A DNA stretch of 63,354 nt, the filler included, from Eubacteriales bacterium (GTDB lineage: Bacteria > Bacillota > Clostridia > Oscillospirales > CAG-382), in the NCBI GenBank assembly GCA_045636665.1. It is 6 parts of 6 records of this genome, joined end to end, with 100 filler letters (N's around TTAATTAATTAA, not from the genome) between each part and the next. Parts side by side here need not be neighbours in the genome. Positions count along the whole stretch, not along the records: positions 24,598 to 37,317 come from JAZTXY010000041.1; positions 37,418 to 44,581 come from JAZTXY010000042.1; 4 more parts are not named here. One strand, 5' to 3'. This document shows, one piece after another, positions 36,001 through 42,000 of the stretch (the first letter of the stretch is position 1; each line of letters opens with the position of its first letter). A program made the position numbers.

Positions 36001-39000
36001 TATCGAGCCCTCCAAAAATATCCTTGGCGGCGCAAAAGATACCTGCTTGCTTTATCACAATAATCGTGAAGGCTACAAGGTTGAAGACCTTATTCCTTAC
36101 CTTGCGTACGTTGATGAAAACGGCAAAATGCAAGACGTTATGTTTGACAGCTTCTTGTTCTTGATTATGTCAACCTTCCCGAGTGGCGGCTATCCTTACT
36201 CAAACGGTGTTAAAACCGACTGGGAATGGGCATTGAACGATTTGTTCGGCGACGGAAAGAACATTAAAGCACTTGACGAAGCAGTTGCTATTGTTAAAGA
36301 AGAACTCGGCCTTGCAGCAGATTATAAGTACAAAGTAATTCTTTCGCTTTATTATCCTTCGCCCGAAATTACAAATTTCGGTGACGTAGACGGCGACGGC
36401 GTTTCCGAAAACCTTAGCAAATACGAAGACACTATGAAGGCAATCGAATGGTATATTAATCTTACCGACGATACCTTCAAAGCACAAAACTTCCAAAATA
36501 TCGAGCTTGTAGGTTATTATTGGTTCCACGAAGCAATCAATTCGACCGATGATATGAGCCTTCGCGTTCTTAACGCAACATCTGAACTCGTTCATAAAAA
36601 GGGTGTTGATTTCTGCTGGATTCCTTATTTCGCATCCAACGGATACAATGCTTGGTCTGAATACGGTTTTGACGTTGCCGTTATGCAGCCTAACTACGTA
36701 TTTAAGCTCGACACTCCTTATTCCAACGTAACCAACTGTGCAAAGCTTACCGCAATGTATGGTATGGGCATCGAAATGGAAATTTGTACCGATAGTTTAA
36801 GTAATATTCAGTTCTTCAAGAAGTATATGCAATATTTGGCAGGTGGTACTGAATACGGTTATATGAACGACTGTATCGTTATGTACTATCAGGAAATATT
36901 CGCTTTCCGCGATGCTTGTAATTCCGATTCGATAATGGGCAGAATGATTTATGATGCTACTTATCATTTCATAAAGGGTGATCTTAAATATAAGCCCGAT
37001 GCAATTTCCGGAACAACCATTGAAACCGCAAAGAATACTCCTGCAAACGGTAGCTTAACGTTTGATACCGAAAAATTGCGTGAGTTCAAAATCAGCGAAA
37101 TGCCCGAACACGGTACTGTTACTCTCAACAACGACGGTTCGTTTACCTACTATCCCGAAAAGGATTTCGTTGGTGAAGTTAAATTCAGCTTCTCCTACAG
37201 CGAATATCTCGGTTGGTCCGATCCGTGCGAAGTTGTTATAAACGTAAAATAATTTAAAATTTTACCAAGCTCTCGATTTAATATCGAGAGCTTGTTTTTT
37301 TTCTAAAATTCCTAAAANNNNNNNNNNNNNNNNNNNNNNNNNNNNNNNNNNNNNNNNNNNNTTAATTAATTAANNNNNNNNNNNNNNNNNNNNNNNNNNN
37401 NNNNNNNNNNNNNNNNNAGAGAGTTGCCGTTTGGTGCGAGGCAATAACCGACATTTTATCTTATCACCTCCGAGCTGCATACCTGAAATATCAGTAGGGT
37501 GTGACGGAGTTTCCGCCGTAAAAAAGGGAATAGCGTCAAGTGCGCCGCAAATGAGTGGTATAATGCAGTTGTTTTTTAACAGCTTCATCTCGTTGCAGAG
37601 ATGGAGCTTTTTGTTTTTTGTACACTTCTTAGCGACGTTAAAAATCAAAAAAGAAGAGGTAATTTGAAAATGGAACAGCAATCAAAAGCAATCGCCGCAA
37701 GACTTAAATGGGCGAGAGAAAATCTCGATATGCCCGTTAAAGCATTGGCGGAGGCGTGCGGTATCGGCGAATCCGAATATATGCGTATGGAAAAGGGCGA
37801 GGAAGATTTTTCCTTCTCCTTCCTTTTCAAGTGTGCAAAGCTTTTGGGTATGGATATTTCCGAGCTCGTTTCGGGTTCTGATCCGAAGCTTGATTTTTAC
37901 AACCTTACGCGCGCAGGCGGCGGTATGCCCATCAAGCGCGAAAAGGGTTTTGACTATCGCCACGTTGCGCCGCTTTTGAAAAACCGTATGAGCGAACCGT
38001 TTATCGTCACCGCAAAATACGATGAAGAGCTGCAAAACAAGCCCATAACTCTTGCGACACACAAGGGACAGGAATTCAACCTTATCCTTACGGGCAACCT
38101 TAAGGTTCAGTTGGGCGAGCATATTTACGTTATGAACCCCGGCGACACAGTTTATTACGATTCCGCGCATCCTCACGGTATGATCGCCGTCGGCGGTCAG
38201 GATTGCACCTTCCTTGCGGTAGTATTCAAGGAAGACGGCGAAAAAGAGGAAAAAGTTCCCGAAAAGACAGAAGATAAAGCAACCTCTTACAATTACGATA
38301 ACTGTATTTATAAGCAATTCGTTGAAGAAACCTTTGACGAAGACGGCAGACTTAAAGATATCAAGCTTCATTGCAACGATAACTTCAATTTTGCTTACGA
38401 CGTCGTTGACGCGCTTGCGGCAAAGGTTCCCGATAAAAAATGTATCCAATGGGTCGGCAACGACGGATCCGAAAAGGAATTTACCTTTTCCGATATTTCG
38501 CGCCTTTCGTCCAAGGCGGCGAACTACTTTGCGATGCAGGGCATCAAGAAGGGCGACCGCGTAATGCTCGTTCTTAAACGCCATTGGCAATTCTGGGTAT
38601 GTATGATCGCTTTGCACAAGCTCGGCGCGGTTGCGGTTCCTGCAACAAATCAGCTTGTCGAGCACGATTTTGAATACCGCTTCAACGCAGGTGAGATCAG
38701 TGCGATCGTTTGTACCGCAGACGGCAACACCGCAATCGAAGCGGAACGCGCTTTCCTCAAATGTCCCACGATGAAGACCAAAATTATGGTCAACGGCACC
38801 CGTGACGGCTGGCAGGAATTCGACACCAACTTTATGCGCTGCTCGTCGAGCTTCCCGCGTGTCGAAAACAGCAAGGACGATCCTTCGGTAATGTTCTTCT
38901 CGTCGGGTACGACCGGATATCCCAAGCTTGCGATGCACAGCTTTACTTATCCGCTCGGACATATCGTTACCGCAAGACATTGGCATCACGTCGATCCCGA

Positions 39001-42000
39001 CGGCTTGCATTTCACCATTTCCGATACCGGCTGGGGTAAGGCGCTTTGGGGCAAGCTTTACGGTCAATGGCTTTGCGAGGCGGCAATTTTCGTTTACGAT
39101 TTCGACCGCTTCGACGCTTCGAAATTGCTTCCCATGTTCGCAAAATATAACATCACCACCTTCTGCGCACCTCCCACGATGTATCGCTTCTTCATCCGTG
39201 AGGACCTTAATAAATACGATCTTTCTTCGCTTAAATACGCGACGATTGCAGGTGAAGCTTTAAACCCCGAGGTGTTCAAGCTCTTCTATAACGCAACCGG
39301 CATTAAGCTTATGGAAGCGTTTGGTCAGACCGAAACAACTCTTACCGTCGGTAACCTTATCGGCTGTGAGCCGAAGCCCGGTTCGATGGGTAAGCCCAGT
39401 CCGGCTTACGATATCGACATAGTGCGCGAGGACGGCACACCTGCCGCTGTCGGTGAAGAGGGCGAAATCGTTATTCGCTTGGACAAGGGCAGACCGTTTG
39501 GCTTGTTCCTCGGTTATTACAAAAACCAAGAAGCGACCGACAACGTGCTTTGCGACGGCGTTTACCACACGGGCGACACCGCATGGCGCGATGAAGACGG
39601 CAATTTCTGGTACGTCGGACGTGTTGACGACGTTATCAAATCGAGCGGCTACCGCATCGGCCCGTTCGAAATCGAAAGCGTTATTATGGAGCTTCCTTAT
39701 GTGCTTGAATGCGCAATTACCGGTGTGCCCGATGAAACGAGAGGGCAAATCGTTAAGGCGACCGTTGTTCTTACAAAGGACAAGGAGCCGAGTGACGAAT
39801 TGGTAAAGGAAATCCAAAATTACGTAAAAACTCACACCGCACCCTATAAATATCCCCGTAAGGTCGAATTCGTCGAAAGTCTTCCCAAAACCATTTCGGG
39901 TAAGATAAGAAGAAAGGTCTTGCGCGATAACGACAACTCGAATAATTAATAAAAAATTCATTGACTTTAACCGATAATATGATAAGATAATATTAGGCAT
40001 AAAGTTAATATCAAGGCGCAGGATACCCCCTGCGCCTTGGTGCACCTTTAAAGTAGGACAAAATTATGGAAAAAATCCCACTTATCGTCGTTGTCGGACC
40101 TACGGCAGGCGGAAAAAGTGCATACGCGATTCAAAAAGCCATCGAGCTCGGAGGCGAAATAATAAGCGGCGATTCTATGCAGATATACCGTGAAATGGAC
40201 ATCGGCACCGCAAAGCCGACCAAGGAGGAAATGGAGGATATCCCTCACCACCTCATCGATATTTGCAATATTGACGAGCCCTTTTCGGCGGCAAAGTTCG
40301 TTACCCTCGCCAAAGCGGCGATAAACGACGTCGTTTCACGGGGCAAATACCCGATAATTGCAGGCGGCACGGGGCTTTATATCGATACGCTCATTTCGGG
40401 CACCGAGCTTGTTGCTACCGAGGATGACCCGATACTGCGCGAAAAGCTTTTTGCCGAGGCAAACGAGCTTGGTGCAGAAGCACTGCACGCGAAATTGGCG
40501 CAAATCGACCCCGAATCGGCAAACGCTATCCACCCGAACAATATAAAGCGCGTTGTCCGCGCTTTGGAAATGTATTACAATACGGGGATAACAAAAAGCG
40601 AGCTTGACCGAAGAAGCAAGCTGCGCGAAAGCGAATATTCGGCGCACACCGTTTATATCATTCCGCGTGAACGCGAAACGATTTATAACCGTATCGATGC
40701 GCGCGTTGATATTATGTTTGAAATGGGCTTGGAAAAAGAGGTTGAAGGGCTTGTTGCCAAGGGACTTCGGGAAACGCCGACGGCATCGCAAGCAATCGGA
40801 TATAAAGAGTTTTATCCGTATTTTGACGGCTTGTGCGATATCAATTCGGTTAAAGAGGCAATTTGCCTTAACACCCGACATTACGCAAAGCGCCAATTAA
40901 CCTGGTTTAACCGCAAGCCTGCGACCGAAATTATTTACATTTAAAGTCCGTTATCAGAATAAAGCAAAGGAGGAAAACCGTTGAGCGAGCAAAACAAGAA
41001 TCTGCCCGAGGCACGAAAAGAAAGCGCGGTAACAACGCGCCGTATAAAACAGCATGAAACGAAGAGCGACAGATTCATCAGGATTGCAAAACGCTTTTTT
41101 GCGCAGTTCGGCACCGCAATAATGGCGGTGGCGATAGTCGCCTACGTTTTCCTTCAGCTTATGCTTAACGTGAGCGTAAATCTTAACCGAGAAACCGCGA
41201 CCTACGTTAACATAACCGACCGCTCGGAGCTTTCCGCGTTCCTTTTCCGCGATGAATACATCATTCCGCAGGGAGCAGAGGGAACCGATTGCTTTCTTGC
41301 CGAGGACGGCGAAAAGGTAAGATTGGGACAGGATATCGTTATAACCTATTCCGATGAAAACGACGTTAATATCCAAAAACGGATAAGCGAAATCGATAAA
41401 CGAATTGACATTCTCGAAAGGTCAAGCCTTGCGACGGGCGCGTCGACTACCGATATAACGCTTATCGACACGAAGATAAACGAGCTTATACTTTCGATTT
41501 CGCGTCAGGTCGATGAAGACGATTTCGATAAGGTCTTGCGTGAAAAGGAAGAGCTCCTTATTCTTATGAACCGCCGCCAAGCGTTAACTCACTCGGATAA
41601 TTATCAAAGTGAATTGAACGCGCTTAAGAGCGAAAAGGAAGCGCTTAATAATCAGCTTAGCGGGGCAAACTATACCGTGCAATCGCCCCAAAGCGGATAT
41701 TTTTATTCGACGGTAGACGGCTATGAAAATTCGTTTACGCTCGACGTGCTTGAAAATATTACCGGCGAGGGCTTTGAAAAGCTTTCCGAATCGACACCCG
41801 ACCAAGCCCTTATTTCGCAGTCTTCGGGCAAAATCGTTATGTCGTCGACTTGGTATATCGCGGTTTCGGTAAACAAAAGGACTGCCGAAACCTTCCGAGA
41901 AAAAAGCAATTACCCGATAACCTTTCAGTATTCGAACAATACAGTTTTGGATATGACGCTTGAACGCAGAATAACCCGTACCGATAAGGACAGCACCGTG

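Follow-up and report, generated by a model that had tools for sequence, protein, structure and literature searches.

The window, a 63,354-nt stretch from the genome of an Eubacteriales bacterium, joins six contigs with N spacers between them, and one of these, C42 (37418–44581), opens inside an RNA leader that is followed by a single long open reading frame (Table 1). Pfam domains confirm the survey's finding that an XRE-type HTH_3 domain, a cupin domain and an acyl-CoA ligase are joined in this one frame, and the best 120 database relatives are all full-length fusions of 733–803 aa. The ORF lister opens the frame at 37601, within the terminator; judged from the sequence, the likely start is the ATG at 37670, which is preceded by GAAGAGG.

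Table 1. Features of the leader, the fused gene and its product.
Feature	Position	Strand	Basis or remark
Promoter TTGACA-17-TAATAT and Stem I 5' strand	contig C2 1-110, outside the window	-	near-consensus promoter
T-box leader, 3' part, 178 nt (AG bulge, distal loop, Stem I 3' strand, Stem II region, T-box sequence)	37418..37595	+	Rfam RF00230, 5'-cut
AG bulge AGAGA	37418-37422	+	part of T-box leader
Specifier AUC (isoleucine), then A	37463..37466	+	Rfam alignment, Stem I fold
T-box bulge UGGUAUA	37556..37562	+	Rfam alignment; 7 nt unpaired in antiterminator fold
Intrinsic terminator	37581..37619	+	terminator scan
Putative ribosome-binding site GAAGAGG	37653..37659	+	10 nt 5' of ATG 37670; read from sequence
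ORF, 759 aa: HTH-cupin module and MacsMa-type short/medium branched-chain acyl-CoA ligase	37670..39949	+	
HTH_3 (XRE-type), aa 12-66	37703..37867	+	Pfam 32.6 bits
Cupin_2, aa 129-185	38054..38224	+	Pfam 41.3 bits
Cupin_2 residues H131, E135, H169	38060-38062, 38072-38074, 38174-38176	+	
AMP-binding, aa 250-617	38417..39520	+	Pfam 197.9 bits; alignment to 3ETC
Pocket segment DTGWGKALW: G456, W460	39035-39037, 39047-39049	+	
Pocket segment FGQTE: G552, T554	39323-39325, 39329-39331	+	
AMP-binding_C, aa 667-745	39668..39904	+	Pfam 81.7 bits

The survey had described the leader as an isoleucine-specific T-box with specifier AUC+A, cut at its 5' end by the contig start, and we reproduced its Rfam score exactly (45.7 bits, E 3.3e-9, model positions 45–219); with the N spacer in the query the score drops to 20.8 bits. 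The 5' part lies on the minus strand of contig C2, positions 1–68 (Rfam 20 bits, model 1–67, 3'-cut). The first 23 nt of C42 are the reverse complement of the C2 start, no other contig end matches the C42 start, and joining the two contigs by script gives a sequence colinear with an unbroken contig of 33.8 kb from a close relative (L002, whose version of the protein is 98% identical), the DNA over the join being 92.9% identical, all of which backs the earlier placement of the promoter and the 5' half of the leader on C2. The whole leader of that relative scores 67.4 bits (E 1.7e-14, model 1–219). Both this value and that of the cut leader are below the Rfam gathering score of 93, which no T-box of the window's own genome reaches (pheS 90.2, trpB 90.1); orthologous leaders of relatives score 88.7–120 bits (11 leaders, five tandem loci).

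The leader contains the complete set of T-box parts, namely a K-turn, a specifier loop with AUC+A, the AGAGA bulge, a distal loop, the UGGUAUA bulge and a terminator/antiterminator, and with the terminator it spans 37418–37619. AUC+A is followed immediately by CCUC, the strand closing the specifier loop, and the minimum-free-energy fold of Stem I has a specifier internal loop whose 3' side is exactly AUCA. The terminator has an 11-bp stem (AGCUUCAUCUC/GAGAUGGAGCU), a 6-nt loop and a U-rich tail; its computed energy is -17.5 kcal/mol, versus -14.2 kcal/mol for the alternative antiterminator, with which it is predicted to compete. No tRNA-Ile gene was found among the 32 tRNAs of the assembly. 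Parts and terminator/antiterminator logic are those of the RF00230 leaders that Firmicutes use for aminoacyl-tRNA synthetases and amino-acid biosynthesis, but here the controlled gene encodes a fatty-acid-activating ligase, a combination of which we found no mention in the main texts of two T-box surveys or in the literature searched. The same genome carries a second T-box, specific for leucine, that controls another fused ligase.

The ligase part most closely resembles MacsMa (MA4008), the medium-chain acyl-CoA synthetase of Methanosarcina acetivorans (PDB 3ETC; E 1.2e-199, 668 bits, 57% identical over 545 aa, residues 213–757), while the best NCBIfam family is MbcS (NF047394; 454.1 bits, model 6–522). 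The 3ETC E value and the MbcS score repeat those obtained earlier. The label "MbcS-like" needs correcting, however: the archaeal MacsMa is much nearer, and the ORF falls far short of the MbcS equivalog cut-off of 850. As in MacsMa, a glycine (G552) occupies the position of the Acs tryptophan, an alternative tryptophan is kept (W460, counterpart of Trp259), and so are the Gly-Tyr-(Lys/Arg), Arg and Tyr of the CoA pocket; by alignment with the residues described in PMC10455477, S659–R662, R691 and A724–Y726 correspond to the CoA-pocket residues. Unlike the ligase of the window, MacsMa is archaeal and has neither an HTH-cupin extension nor a T-box, and the account consulted assigns it no physiological role. 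All catalytic motifs are kept in the ligase part, which is the best conserved portion of the protein (mean pairwise identity 67–79% vs 48–52% for the HTH and cupin parts). In the available account of MacsMa, 2-methylbutyrate is the preferred substrate and the sole one that completes both half-reactions (PMC10455477). MbcS is described as activating both 2-methylbutyrate and isobutyrate, which are also the acids that we predict for the Ile- and Val-type paralogs, but it feeds fatty-acid initiation and lacks a fused HTH-cupin module, and the abstract describes no T-box for it (PMC10026030).

By the general rule for T-boxes, as stated in the part of PMC2494555 that treats it, the specifier names the amino acid supplied by the controlled pathway. 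The survey had reported only isoleucine or valine specifiers upstream of relatives' genes, and our independent sample of 75 related loci gives the same result: the matched gene follows ATC in 46 loci (plus one probable case) and a valine codon in 11 (GTA 8, GTG 2, GTC 1), and no specifier for any other amino acid was seen. No T-box was seen upstream in 12 loci, the specifier is lost at a contig end in two, and three lack upstream DNA. These readings come from our own pattern parser and inspection by eye, with an Rfam check for 11 related leaders and that of the window. HTH-cupin ligases form 12 tandem pairs, in which the first copy is Ile-type and the second either has its own Val T-box (8/12) or follows within 30–98 nt without one (4/12).

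Specifier and acyl pocket vary together. When 41 Ile-type enzymes are compared with 13 Val-type ones over the whole protein, the only distinguishing differences are F448L, G456A and T554S, all three on acyl-pocket segments. G456 lies four residues before W460, and T554 two residues past G552, at whose position Acs has the tryptophan by which acyl size is set (PMC10455477). Alanine at 456 is found in none of the Ile-type and in 12 of the 13 Val-type enzymes (14 of 15 with two further Val copies); one Val-specifier copy, at L035, retains G456. The Val label needs at least four changes on the tree, and A456 is also present in L066 and L039, two Val lineages that lie apart from the rest; the pocket change recurs across independent lineages.

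In agreement with the survey's finding on vorB, vor genes and ilvE adjoin the ligase in relatives, often in one tight operon: the 75 loci include a P-loop ATPase in 21, VorB in 20, beta and gamma subunits in 14 each and IlvE in seven. The ATPase follows the ligase on the same strand in 19 loci, with a gap of -4 to 25 nt in 11 of them, and in L065 and L069 the order is T-box(ATC)-ligase-ATPase-vorB-vorA-vorC-ilvE. In the window's own genome VorB scores 548 bits; its vor cluster also encodes the delta, beta and gamma subunits and a counterpart of that ATPase (45% identical), and there is one class IV aminotransferase (Aminotran_4) gene. Its ligase gene lies apart from vor and ilvE, for neither of which a T-box was found. 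Of the classical pathway, ilvC and ilvD were not found, but this genome is not wholly without classical genes: an ilvB-ilvN-leuB-leuD-leuC-leuA operon is present. With an assembly of 80.5% completeness, failure to find ilvC and ilvD is weak evidence taken alone, and the genus data carry the point: the ligase is present in all five genomes of the genus (97–99% complete) and KARI (ilvC) in none. Within the family, all eight ilvD-negative genomes have VorB and all three VorB-negative ones have ilvD. The enrichment of the fused form in KARI-negative genomes was likewise reproduced (73/103 vs 20/98 KARI-positive), with the fused class assigned by reading the listed matches, 27 genomes with weaker matches left unclassed, and independence overstated by these counts because the genomes are related. 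A ligase match is absent from 17 KARI-negative genomes, and 12 of the 15 genomes with unfused forms only are KARI-positive.

These observations support the survey's proposal on evidence that is comparative throughout: the ligase probably activates exogenous 2-methylbutyrate, the product going to isoleucine by reductive carboxylation and transamination under control of the Ile T-box. From the RNA and protein anatomy, specifier distribution, gene order, phyletic pattern and specifier–pocket co-variation we infer that the leader binds tRNA, what the ligase activates and in which direction VOR runs. Transcription would start at the near-consensus promoter and stop at the leader terminator unless uncharged tRNA-Ile base-paired with the leader at two sites, through its GAU anticodon at the AUC specifier and through its ACCA end at the UGGU bulge; read-through would occur only then, and therefore the enzyme would be made under isoleucine shortage. 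The AMP-forming ligase would convert 2-methylbutyrate to 2-methylbutyryl-CoA, a VorB-type 2-oxoacid:ferredoxin oxidoreductase would reductively carboxylate this to 2-oxo-3-methylvalerate, and a branched-chain aminotransferase would yield isoleucine, a route that would replace the ilvC and ilvD steps missing from the lineage.

The 2-methylbutyryl-CoA might instead go to FabH and start anteiso fatty acids, with the Ile T-box on when isoleucine is scarce. MbcS of Staphylococcus aureus is reported to do so with the same acids (PMC10026030), and MbcS is the best NCBIfam match, albeit below its cut-off. The T-box logic fits as well, since isoleucine is the usual source of the primer and low isoleucine means little primer, and one acyl-CoA could feed both ends. 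However, supply of a lipid primer would not need the tight linkage to vorB/A/C and ilvE, nor does it match the anticorrelation of the ligase with KARI and its complementarity to ilvD in the family, and the Val- and Leu-specific counterparts complete a set matching three amino acids. We regard such a role as unlikely.

The HTH-cupin module has five helices of an XRE-like domain at its N terminus and a cupin barrel behind them, the architecture of both hydroxypropylphosphonate epoxidase (HppE; 1ZZ6, 2BNM) and XRE-cupin regulators (1Y9Q), and Foldseek finds the two about equally (E 1.9e-13 and 2.0e-13). New here are its occurrence as a separate gene, an invariant His-Glu-His triad and a predicted docking on the ligase. 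The separate gene (192–193 aa; product 52% identical to the N-terminal part of the window's ORF) comes after the T-box and ahead of an unfused ligase at L088, L093 and L092, and module and ligase are likewise split at L043. R11 and R16 are invariant in the aligned sequences, as are H131, E135 and H169 in 14 and in 26 sequences; the triad aligns with H138, E142 and H180 of HppE, its iron-binding residues. The complex model of HTH-cupin and ligase supports binding, with a score of 0.64 (best control 0.01). Of 157 solved complexes, 116 attain that mark, as do two of 215 mismatched pairs; these counts hold only roughly because the alignments were self-made. At least 95% of the contacts recur from run to run, and the pLDDT of the partner is 87 or higher. 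The predicted docking face is the CoA-site face of the ligase (S659–R662, R691, A724–Y726), contacted by helix 1 and the linker. We infer that the module works as a partner tethered to the ligase, probably binding a metal and acting at the CoA-site face or close to it. HppE itself is a stand-alone enzyme whose helical domain is not known to bind DNA; it is only 20–23% identical to the module and different in domain orientation (rmsd about 12 A, TM about 0.5), and its O2 or peroxide chemistry is unlikely here because the organism is a strict anaerobe.

The same module could make the protein a regulator first, with catalysis secondary: the HTH would bind DNA at vor, ilvE or uptake genes while the cupin or ligase sensed a branched acid, acyl-AMP or 2-oxoacid. 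HTH_3 with Cupin_2 is the XRE-cupin regulator architecture, the top match by global structure is 1Y9Q, an HTH_3 regulator of Vibrio cholerae (TM 0.65; E 7.1e-11), the signature G-(V/I)-S...Y...E-G is kept, the third helix stays free in the predicted interface, and the genome's vor and ilvE have no T-box of their own. Against this, 50 promoter regions yielded neither an operator word nor a palindrome in common, only A-tracts being enriched, the third-helix residues beyond the conserved Ser vary, and it is the ligase part that is best conserved, its catalytic motifs intact. Moreover, the architecture is that of an enzyme in HppE, and the module can be aligned with HppE along its whole length (family profile over 8–178, E 5.5e-8). 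A primarily regulatory protein therefore seems improbable. Activation of propionate or another short acid, with propionyl-CoA carboxylated to 2-oxobutyrate for the classical isoleucine pathway via IlvBN, is very improbable: MacsMa adenylates C3–C8 acids and ilvB and ilvN are kept, but the route needs ilvC and ilvD, not found here (ilvC in none of the five genus genomes), MacsMa completes the reaction with 2-methylbutyrate only (PMC10455477, as far as consulted), and the narrower pocket of the Val-specifier paralogs fits isobutyrate, not propionate.

The synthesis of isoleucine from 2-methylbutyrate would be the chemistry proposed for rumen anaerobes and methanogens, in which branched-chain acids are reductively carboxylated and converted to amino acids; older labelling work by Allison and Robinson reportedly concerned this reaction. 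For Methanobrevibacter ruminantium, reductive carboxylation of 2-methylbutyrate is given as the probable route to isoleucine in a passage that names neither the activating enzyme nor its regulation (PMC2812497), in contrast to the dedicated ligase described here, with its amino-acid-specific RNA control and its linkage to vor and ilvE. If our reading is true, a gut bacterium without part of the usual pathway rebuilds isoleucine from a fermentation acid.

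The Eubacteriales bacterium encodes a 759-residue protein that joins the Pfam domains HTH_3 (residues 12–66), Cupin_2 (129–185), AMP-binding (250–617, 197.9 bits) and AMP-binding_C (667–745, 81.7 bits), the fusion already described in the survey's finding. The frame start given by the ORF lister, 37601, falls inside the terminator of the preceding leader; the true start is likely the ATG located 10 nt after GAAGAGG. The core motifs of ANL enzymes (SSGTTG, GQTE, YHTGD and SGKI) are present and are invariant in 14 relatives. The best NCBIfam family is NF047394 (MbcS), with the previously reported score, 454.1 bits, which is below the equivalog cut-off of 850. 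The match to MacsMa, the Methanosarcina acetivorans ligase (PDB 3ETC), was likewise recovered (E 1.2e-199); this is the best solved relative, with 57% identity over residues 213–757. The 120 best database relatives are all full-length fusions of 733–803 aa, mostly from metagenome bins of Clostridia, and carry, if any label, only 'AMP-binding protein'. In the 3ETC alignment, a glycine (G552) occupies the site of the Acs pocket tryptophan and W460 provides the alternative tryptophan, both in 54 of 54 sequences. W460 corresponds to MacsMa Trp259 by this alignment and an offset of 23, deduced from the residues named in PMC10455477, which assigns Trp259 a critical role in substrate binding. The ligase is predicted from its sequence to prefer 2-methylbutyrate.

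The window of 63,354 bases comprises six contigs with N spacers between them. The whole 1.8-Mb assembly consists of 139 contigs and is 80.5% complete, and the ligase locus lies at the start of one of them (C42), so that the T-box leader is cut at its 5' end. Searched with the N spacer included, the leader reached only 20.8 bits against Rfam RF00230; taken from the first base of the contig, it gave the score reported earlier (45.7 bits, E 3.3e-9, model positions 45–219). The missing part was identified on contig C2: the first 23 nt of C42 are the reverse complement of the start of C2, as claimed, and no other contig end matches. The join is colinear with the intact contig of a near relative (L002) and aligns to it through the junction at 92.9% identity, and the encoded protein of that relative is 98% identical to the one in the window. 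Its whole leader, used as a stand-in for the Rfam score of the joined sequence, scored 67.4 bits (E 1.7e-14, model 1–219). Neither this nor the part in the window reaches the RF00230 gathering score of 93 bits, and all other T-boxes of this genome are also below it (pheS, 90.2; trpB, 90.1; a third, 69.9; thrS, 29.2). Orthologous leaders of five relatives scored 88.7–120 bits, with 9 of 11 at 95.7–120. At another contig end, the first 60 bases of C45 recur, reversed, near the end of C84, which probably reflects an overlap of the two contigs or a repeat common to both. No RNA sequencing run was found to contain the stretch, and the DNA runs that match it carry at most 0.28 of its sampled words.

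In the joined sequence, a promoter (TTGACA-17-TAATAT) precedes a Stem I in which Rfam alignments show the K-turn base, a specifier loop with codon and purine, the AG bulge and the distal loop. The AG bulge reads AGAGA. In the minimum-free-energy fold of Stem I (-20.6 kcal/mol), AUCA, which contains the isoleucine codon AUC, remains unpaired. The T-box sequence with its UGGN bulge lies in an antiterminator (-14.2 kcal/mol) that competes with the intrinsic terminator (-17.5 kcal/mol) for a common strand, CUUCAUCUC. Read-through is predicted to depend on uncharged cognate tRNA-Ile; no tRNA-Ile was found among the 32 tRNA genes of the assembly. Downstream of the ligase ORF, the terminator scan revealed no clear terminator, only a GC hairpin without a U tail before miaA, and co-transcription of the two genes is possible. 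The gene order from 39961 onwards is miaA, a HlyD-like gene, a YggS-like PLP protein, sepF and divIVA. A 1031-aa ORF on another contig of the window probably encodes a surface protein that binds or degrades glycans.

Coordinates of the leader, the fusion gene and other features (window positions unless a contig or locus is named)
Feature	Location	Description	Basis
5' part of leader	C2 1–68, minus strand	20 bits, model 1–67	Rfam
Contig C42	37418–44581	begins with the ligase locus	
Specifier AUC+A	37463–37466	exactly the 3' side of the specifier loop	fold and Rfam alignment
T-box bulge UGGUAUA	37556–37562	unpaired in antiterminator fold	
Intrinsic terminator	37581–37619	11-bp stem and U tail	terminator scan and fold
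Fusion ORF	37670–39949 (+)	HTH-cupin module and acyl-CoA ligase	
Promoter-like site	39961–39988	TTGACT-16-TAAGAT with TG, upstream of miaA (IPP transferase)	
CRISPR-DR15 match	31118–31147 (contig C41)	weak, 26.1 bits (gathering score 36)	
1031-aa ORF	34157–37252	DUF4855, two F5/8 type C-like domains, Ig-like domains at the end	
Contig C45	52595–63354		
leu-ilv operon, contig C79	L087:501–7185	leuA-leuC-leuD-leuB-ilvB-ilvN	
Aromatic pair, contig C85	L084:126–3222	PaaK-like ligase, then IorA	
ATPase, contig C109	L083:2306–2965	before the vor genes	
ATPase, locus L012	L012:10128–10793		
Second fusion, contig C138	L086:849–3656	T-box, TIM barrel and ligase	

In a scan with one genome per species, a relative was encoded by 624 of the 636 candidate stretches; the 80 best, kept for analysis, gave 75 distinct loci. 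Specifiers were parsed by demanding a K-turn, a paired closing helix, an AG bulge and a downstream T-box word, and unresolved cases were read by eye. The claim that relatives carry only isoleucine or valine specifiers held throughout, with no other amino acid in the 75 loci: ATC was read at 46 loci and probably at one more (L056), GTA at eight, GTG at two and GTC at one. Two loci have a T-box whose specifier is lost at a contig end, three lack upstream DNA, and no T-box was seen at 12, including several from Ruminococcus and three from bins labelled Lentisphaerae or Victivallales. The fused ligases of the latter (L021, L031, L058) are 55–60% identical to that of the window, and either horizontal transfer out of Firmicutes or mis-binning accounts for them. 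One genome (L018 and L069) has both a Val and an Ile copy. Among the carriers of the ligase, Solibaculum intestinale CLA-JM-H44 (L015) is in culture. Tandem pairs of HTH-cupin ligases were found 12 times, the first copy being Ile-type (that is, behind an isoleucine specifier); in eight pairs the second copy lies behind a separate Val leader, and in four it follows leaderless, 30–98 nt behind.

Another T-box of this genome, on contig C138 (69.9 bits), has the leucine specifier CUC+A, and its 3' part aligns poorly to the Rfam model. The gene behind it encodes 844 aa, in which a xylose-isomerase-like TIM barrel (AP_endonuc_2) is fused to another kind of acyl-CoA ligase, PRK12583-like and 25–29% identical to the Ile ligase. 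Full-length orthologs of this fusion, 52–61% identical, adjoin the Ile/Val ligases in 15 of 75 loci, where a LeuA-like gene and a T-box with the leucine specifier CUG usually precede them.

Among clustered ORFs of the 75 loci, in which antisense ORFs displaced some vorA calls so that neighbours are undercounted, VorB (534 bits; NCBIfam cut-off 399) is found near the ligase in 20, in line with the earlier report of vorB linkage. Beta and gamma subunits each occur in 14 loci, a LeuA-like gene in 14, a branched-chain aminotransferase (504 bits) in seven and a MinD/ParA-like P-loop ATPase in 21. The ATPase follows the ligase on the same strand in 19 loci, with a gap of -4 to 25 nt in 11 of them. 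At two loci (L065 and L069), the order, with short gaps, is T-box(ATC)-ligase-ATPase-vorB-vorA-vorC-ilvE, which by gene content places all predicted steps from 2-methylbutyrate to isoleucine behind a single isoleucine-sensing leader. In this genome, the ligase is apart from the vor and aminotransferase genes. Contig C109 encodes the same ATPase (45% identical), the delta subunit, VorB (548 bits) and the beta and gamma subunits, and C98 the only class IV aminotransferase of the genome. The ATPase (about 220 aa, MinD/ParA/NUBPL-like, without an NCBIfam name) stands between ligase and vor genes in those 21 loci and might supply the oxidoreductase with Fe-S clusters. On contig C85, a PaaK-like phenylacetate-CoA ligase (475 bits) directly precedes IorA, indolepyruvate:ferredoxin oxidoreductase (707 bits), an aromatic counterpart of the same ligase and oxidoreductase logic.

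We consider it likely that the ligase feeds 2-methylbutyrate into isoleucine under control of the Ile T-box. When isoleucine is short, uncharged tRNA-Ile would stabilise the antiterminator and the ligase would be made; it would convert 2-methylbutyrate to its CoA ester, which a VorB-type enzyme would carboxylate reductively, and an aminotransferase would then yield isoleucine. The biosynthetic direction is favoured because the chemistry is AMP-forming and the control is starvation-induced. With vor and aminotransferase genes among the neighbours, the alternative that the ligase supplies lipid primers is unlikely.

The classical pathway is not wholly missing: searches of this 80.5% complete genome found neither ilvC nor ilvD, but ilvB-ilvN and leuABCD are kept on contig C79. 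The leuABCD products could lengthen 2-oxoisovalerate derived from isobutyrate. The reported anticorrelation with KARI, the ilvC product, was seen again in 201 sampled genomes from the order, each at least 90% complete apart from this one. A ligase relative (E ≤ 1e-100) is present in 136 of them and KARI above its cut-off in 98; the fused form, classed from the matches listed, is present in 73 of 103 KARI-negative versus 20 of 98 KARI-positive genomes, figures left as counts, with no probability, because related genomes are not independent. In its own genus, the ligase is found in five of five genomes and KARI in none (97–99% complete). In its own family, VorB is present in all eight ilvD-negative genomes, and ilvD in all three VorB-negative ones.

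Ligase forms and KARI in 201 genomes of the order
Form	Genomes	KARI-positive	KARI-negative
Fused (by matches listed)	93	20	73
Unfused only	15	12	3
Weaker hits without class	27	17	10
Cut by contig end	1	1	0
No ligase hit	65	48	17

The HTH-cupin part is less conserved (mean pairwise identity 48–52%) than the ligase (67–79%), with R11, R16, H131, E135 and H169 among its invariant residues. It also exists as a separate gene of 192–193 aa at three loci (L088, L092 and L093), between a T-box (91–110 bits) and an unfused ligase, and its product there is 52% identical to the first 192 residues of the window protein. The two parts are likewise split in L043, and in L089 the T-box directly precedes an unfused ligase. 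The architecture, HTH_3 followed by a cupin barrel, is that of XRE-cupin regulators, and a top Foldseek match of a model of the separate form (mean pLDDT 88.7) is an HTH_3 regulator of Vibrio cholerae (1Y9Q, TM 0.65), in whose alignment the first histidine of the module has no counterpart. Also among the top matches is the iron enzyme HppE (E 1.9e-13, TM about 0.5). Aligned to the family profile over 8–178 (E 5.5e-8), it places its H138, E142 and H180, which we take to hold iron, opposite H131, E135 and H169, the 2-His-1-Glu triad of HppE-like cupin enzymes; the helical domain of HppE is not known to bind DNA. No shared operator word or palindrome was found in 50 promoter regions, where only A-tracts are enriched, a weak negative that is compatible with binding elsewhere. 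Despite the regulator-like architecture, a mainly regulatory protein is very unlikely. The idea of the cupin as a C2 epimerase for 2-methylbutyrate was set aside because the module is retained in Val-type enzymes, whose substrate is achiral, and no residue sets it apart there.

Complex prediction for the split pair from custom alignments gave a score of 0.64 (best control, 0.01). Of 157 solved complexes, 116 attain this mark, as do 2 of 215 mismatched pairs, figures that apply only roughly to custom alignments. At least 95% of the contacts are common to the runs, with partner pLDDT of at least 87, and this model confidence supports binding of the module to the ligase. The predicted contact involves helix 1 (including R11) and the linker on one side and the counterparts of window residues S659–R662, R691 and A724–Y726 on the other. 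By alignment, these ligase contacts are MacsMa Gly459, Tyr460, Lys461, Arg490 and Tyr525, five of the CoA-pocket residues studied in PMC10455477.

The enzymes behind the two kinds of leader also differ in their putative pocket. When 41 Ile-leader and 13 Val-leader enzymes were aligned, only F448L, G456A and T554S separated them at a threshold of 80% over the whole protein. Alanine at 456 is found in 0 of 41 Ile-type versus 12 of 13 Val-type enzymes, or 14 of 15 with two further Val copies. G456 lies within DTGWGKALW, four residues N-terminal of W460, and T554 is the threonine of FGQTE, two residues past G552, at the equivalent place of which the Acs tryptophan sets acyl size (PMC10455477). A bulkier residue 456 in the Val enzymes would fit a smaller acid, isobutyrate as opposed to 2-methylbutyrate. 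The alternative that the ligase uses some other substrate is very unlikely. On a quick maximum-likelihood tree (IQ-TREE with SH-aLRT support), the Val label requires at least four changes. Two Val lineages outside the main Val clade (L066 and L039) both have A456; the exception is a recent duplicate (L035) with a GTA leader but still G456.

We offer the following joint reading tentatively, as possible though doubtful. Specifier and pocket (WGK for Ile, WAK for Val) would have switched together several times; and the HTH-cupin part would be a metal-binding (His-Glu-His) subunit, not a classical repressor. Its helical domain would sit on the CoA-nucleotide face of the ligase, and the subunit would gate the thioester-forming half-reaction. 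Such gating might answer a ligand, for example the 2-oxoacid product chelating the metal. If true, this family would have a one-residue code for substrate, with WGK/WAK as a simple sequence marker for substrate prediction, and branched-chain amino acid salvage would be under two controls, one acting on the RNA through tRNA charging and the other on the enzyme through an integral, HppE-like sensor.

The single components have been described before: T-boxes, MacsMa-type ligases and the reductive carboxylation of isoacids. A link between a T-box and an acyl-CoA ligase, or this fusion, was not found in literature searches or in the main texts of two T-box surveys, although a survey table may list this gene, and the searches found no paper assigning a gene that activates isoacids for amino-acid synthesis. 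A requirement for isobutyrate, 2-methylbutyrate and isovalerate is long established for fibre-degrading Clostridia of gut and rumen; to our knowledge, it has not been settled which genes activate them for amino-acid synthesis. The present loci offer a concrete and widespread gene set for isoacid activation, in which the specifier of the riboswitch directly indicates the amino acid, and would explain isoleucine and valine synthesis in lineages without ilvC and ilvD. With them, fatty-acid activation would join synthetases, transporters and classical biosynthesis in the T-box regulon, and an adenylating enzyme would have an HTH-cupin partner that is so far unstudied. The finding is relevant to isoacid feeding of ruminants and to cross-feeding in gut communities.
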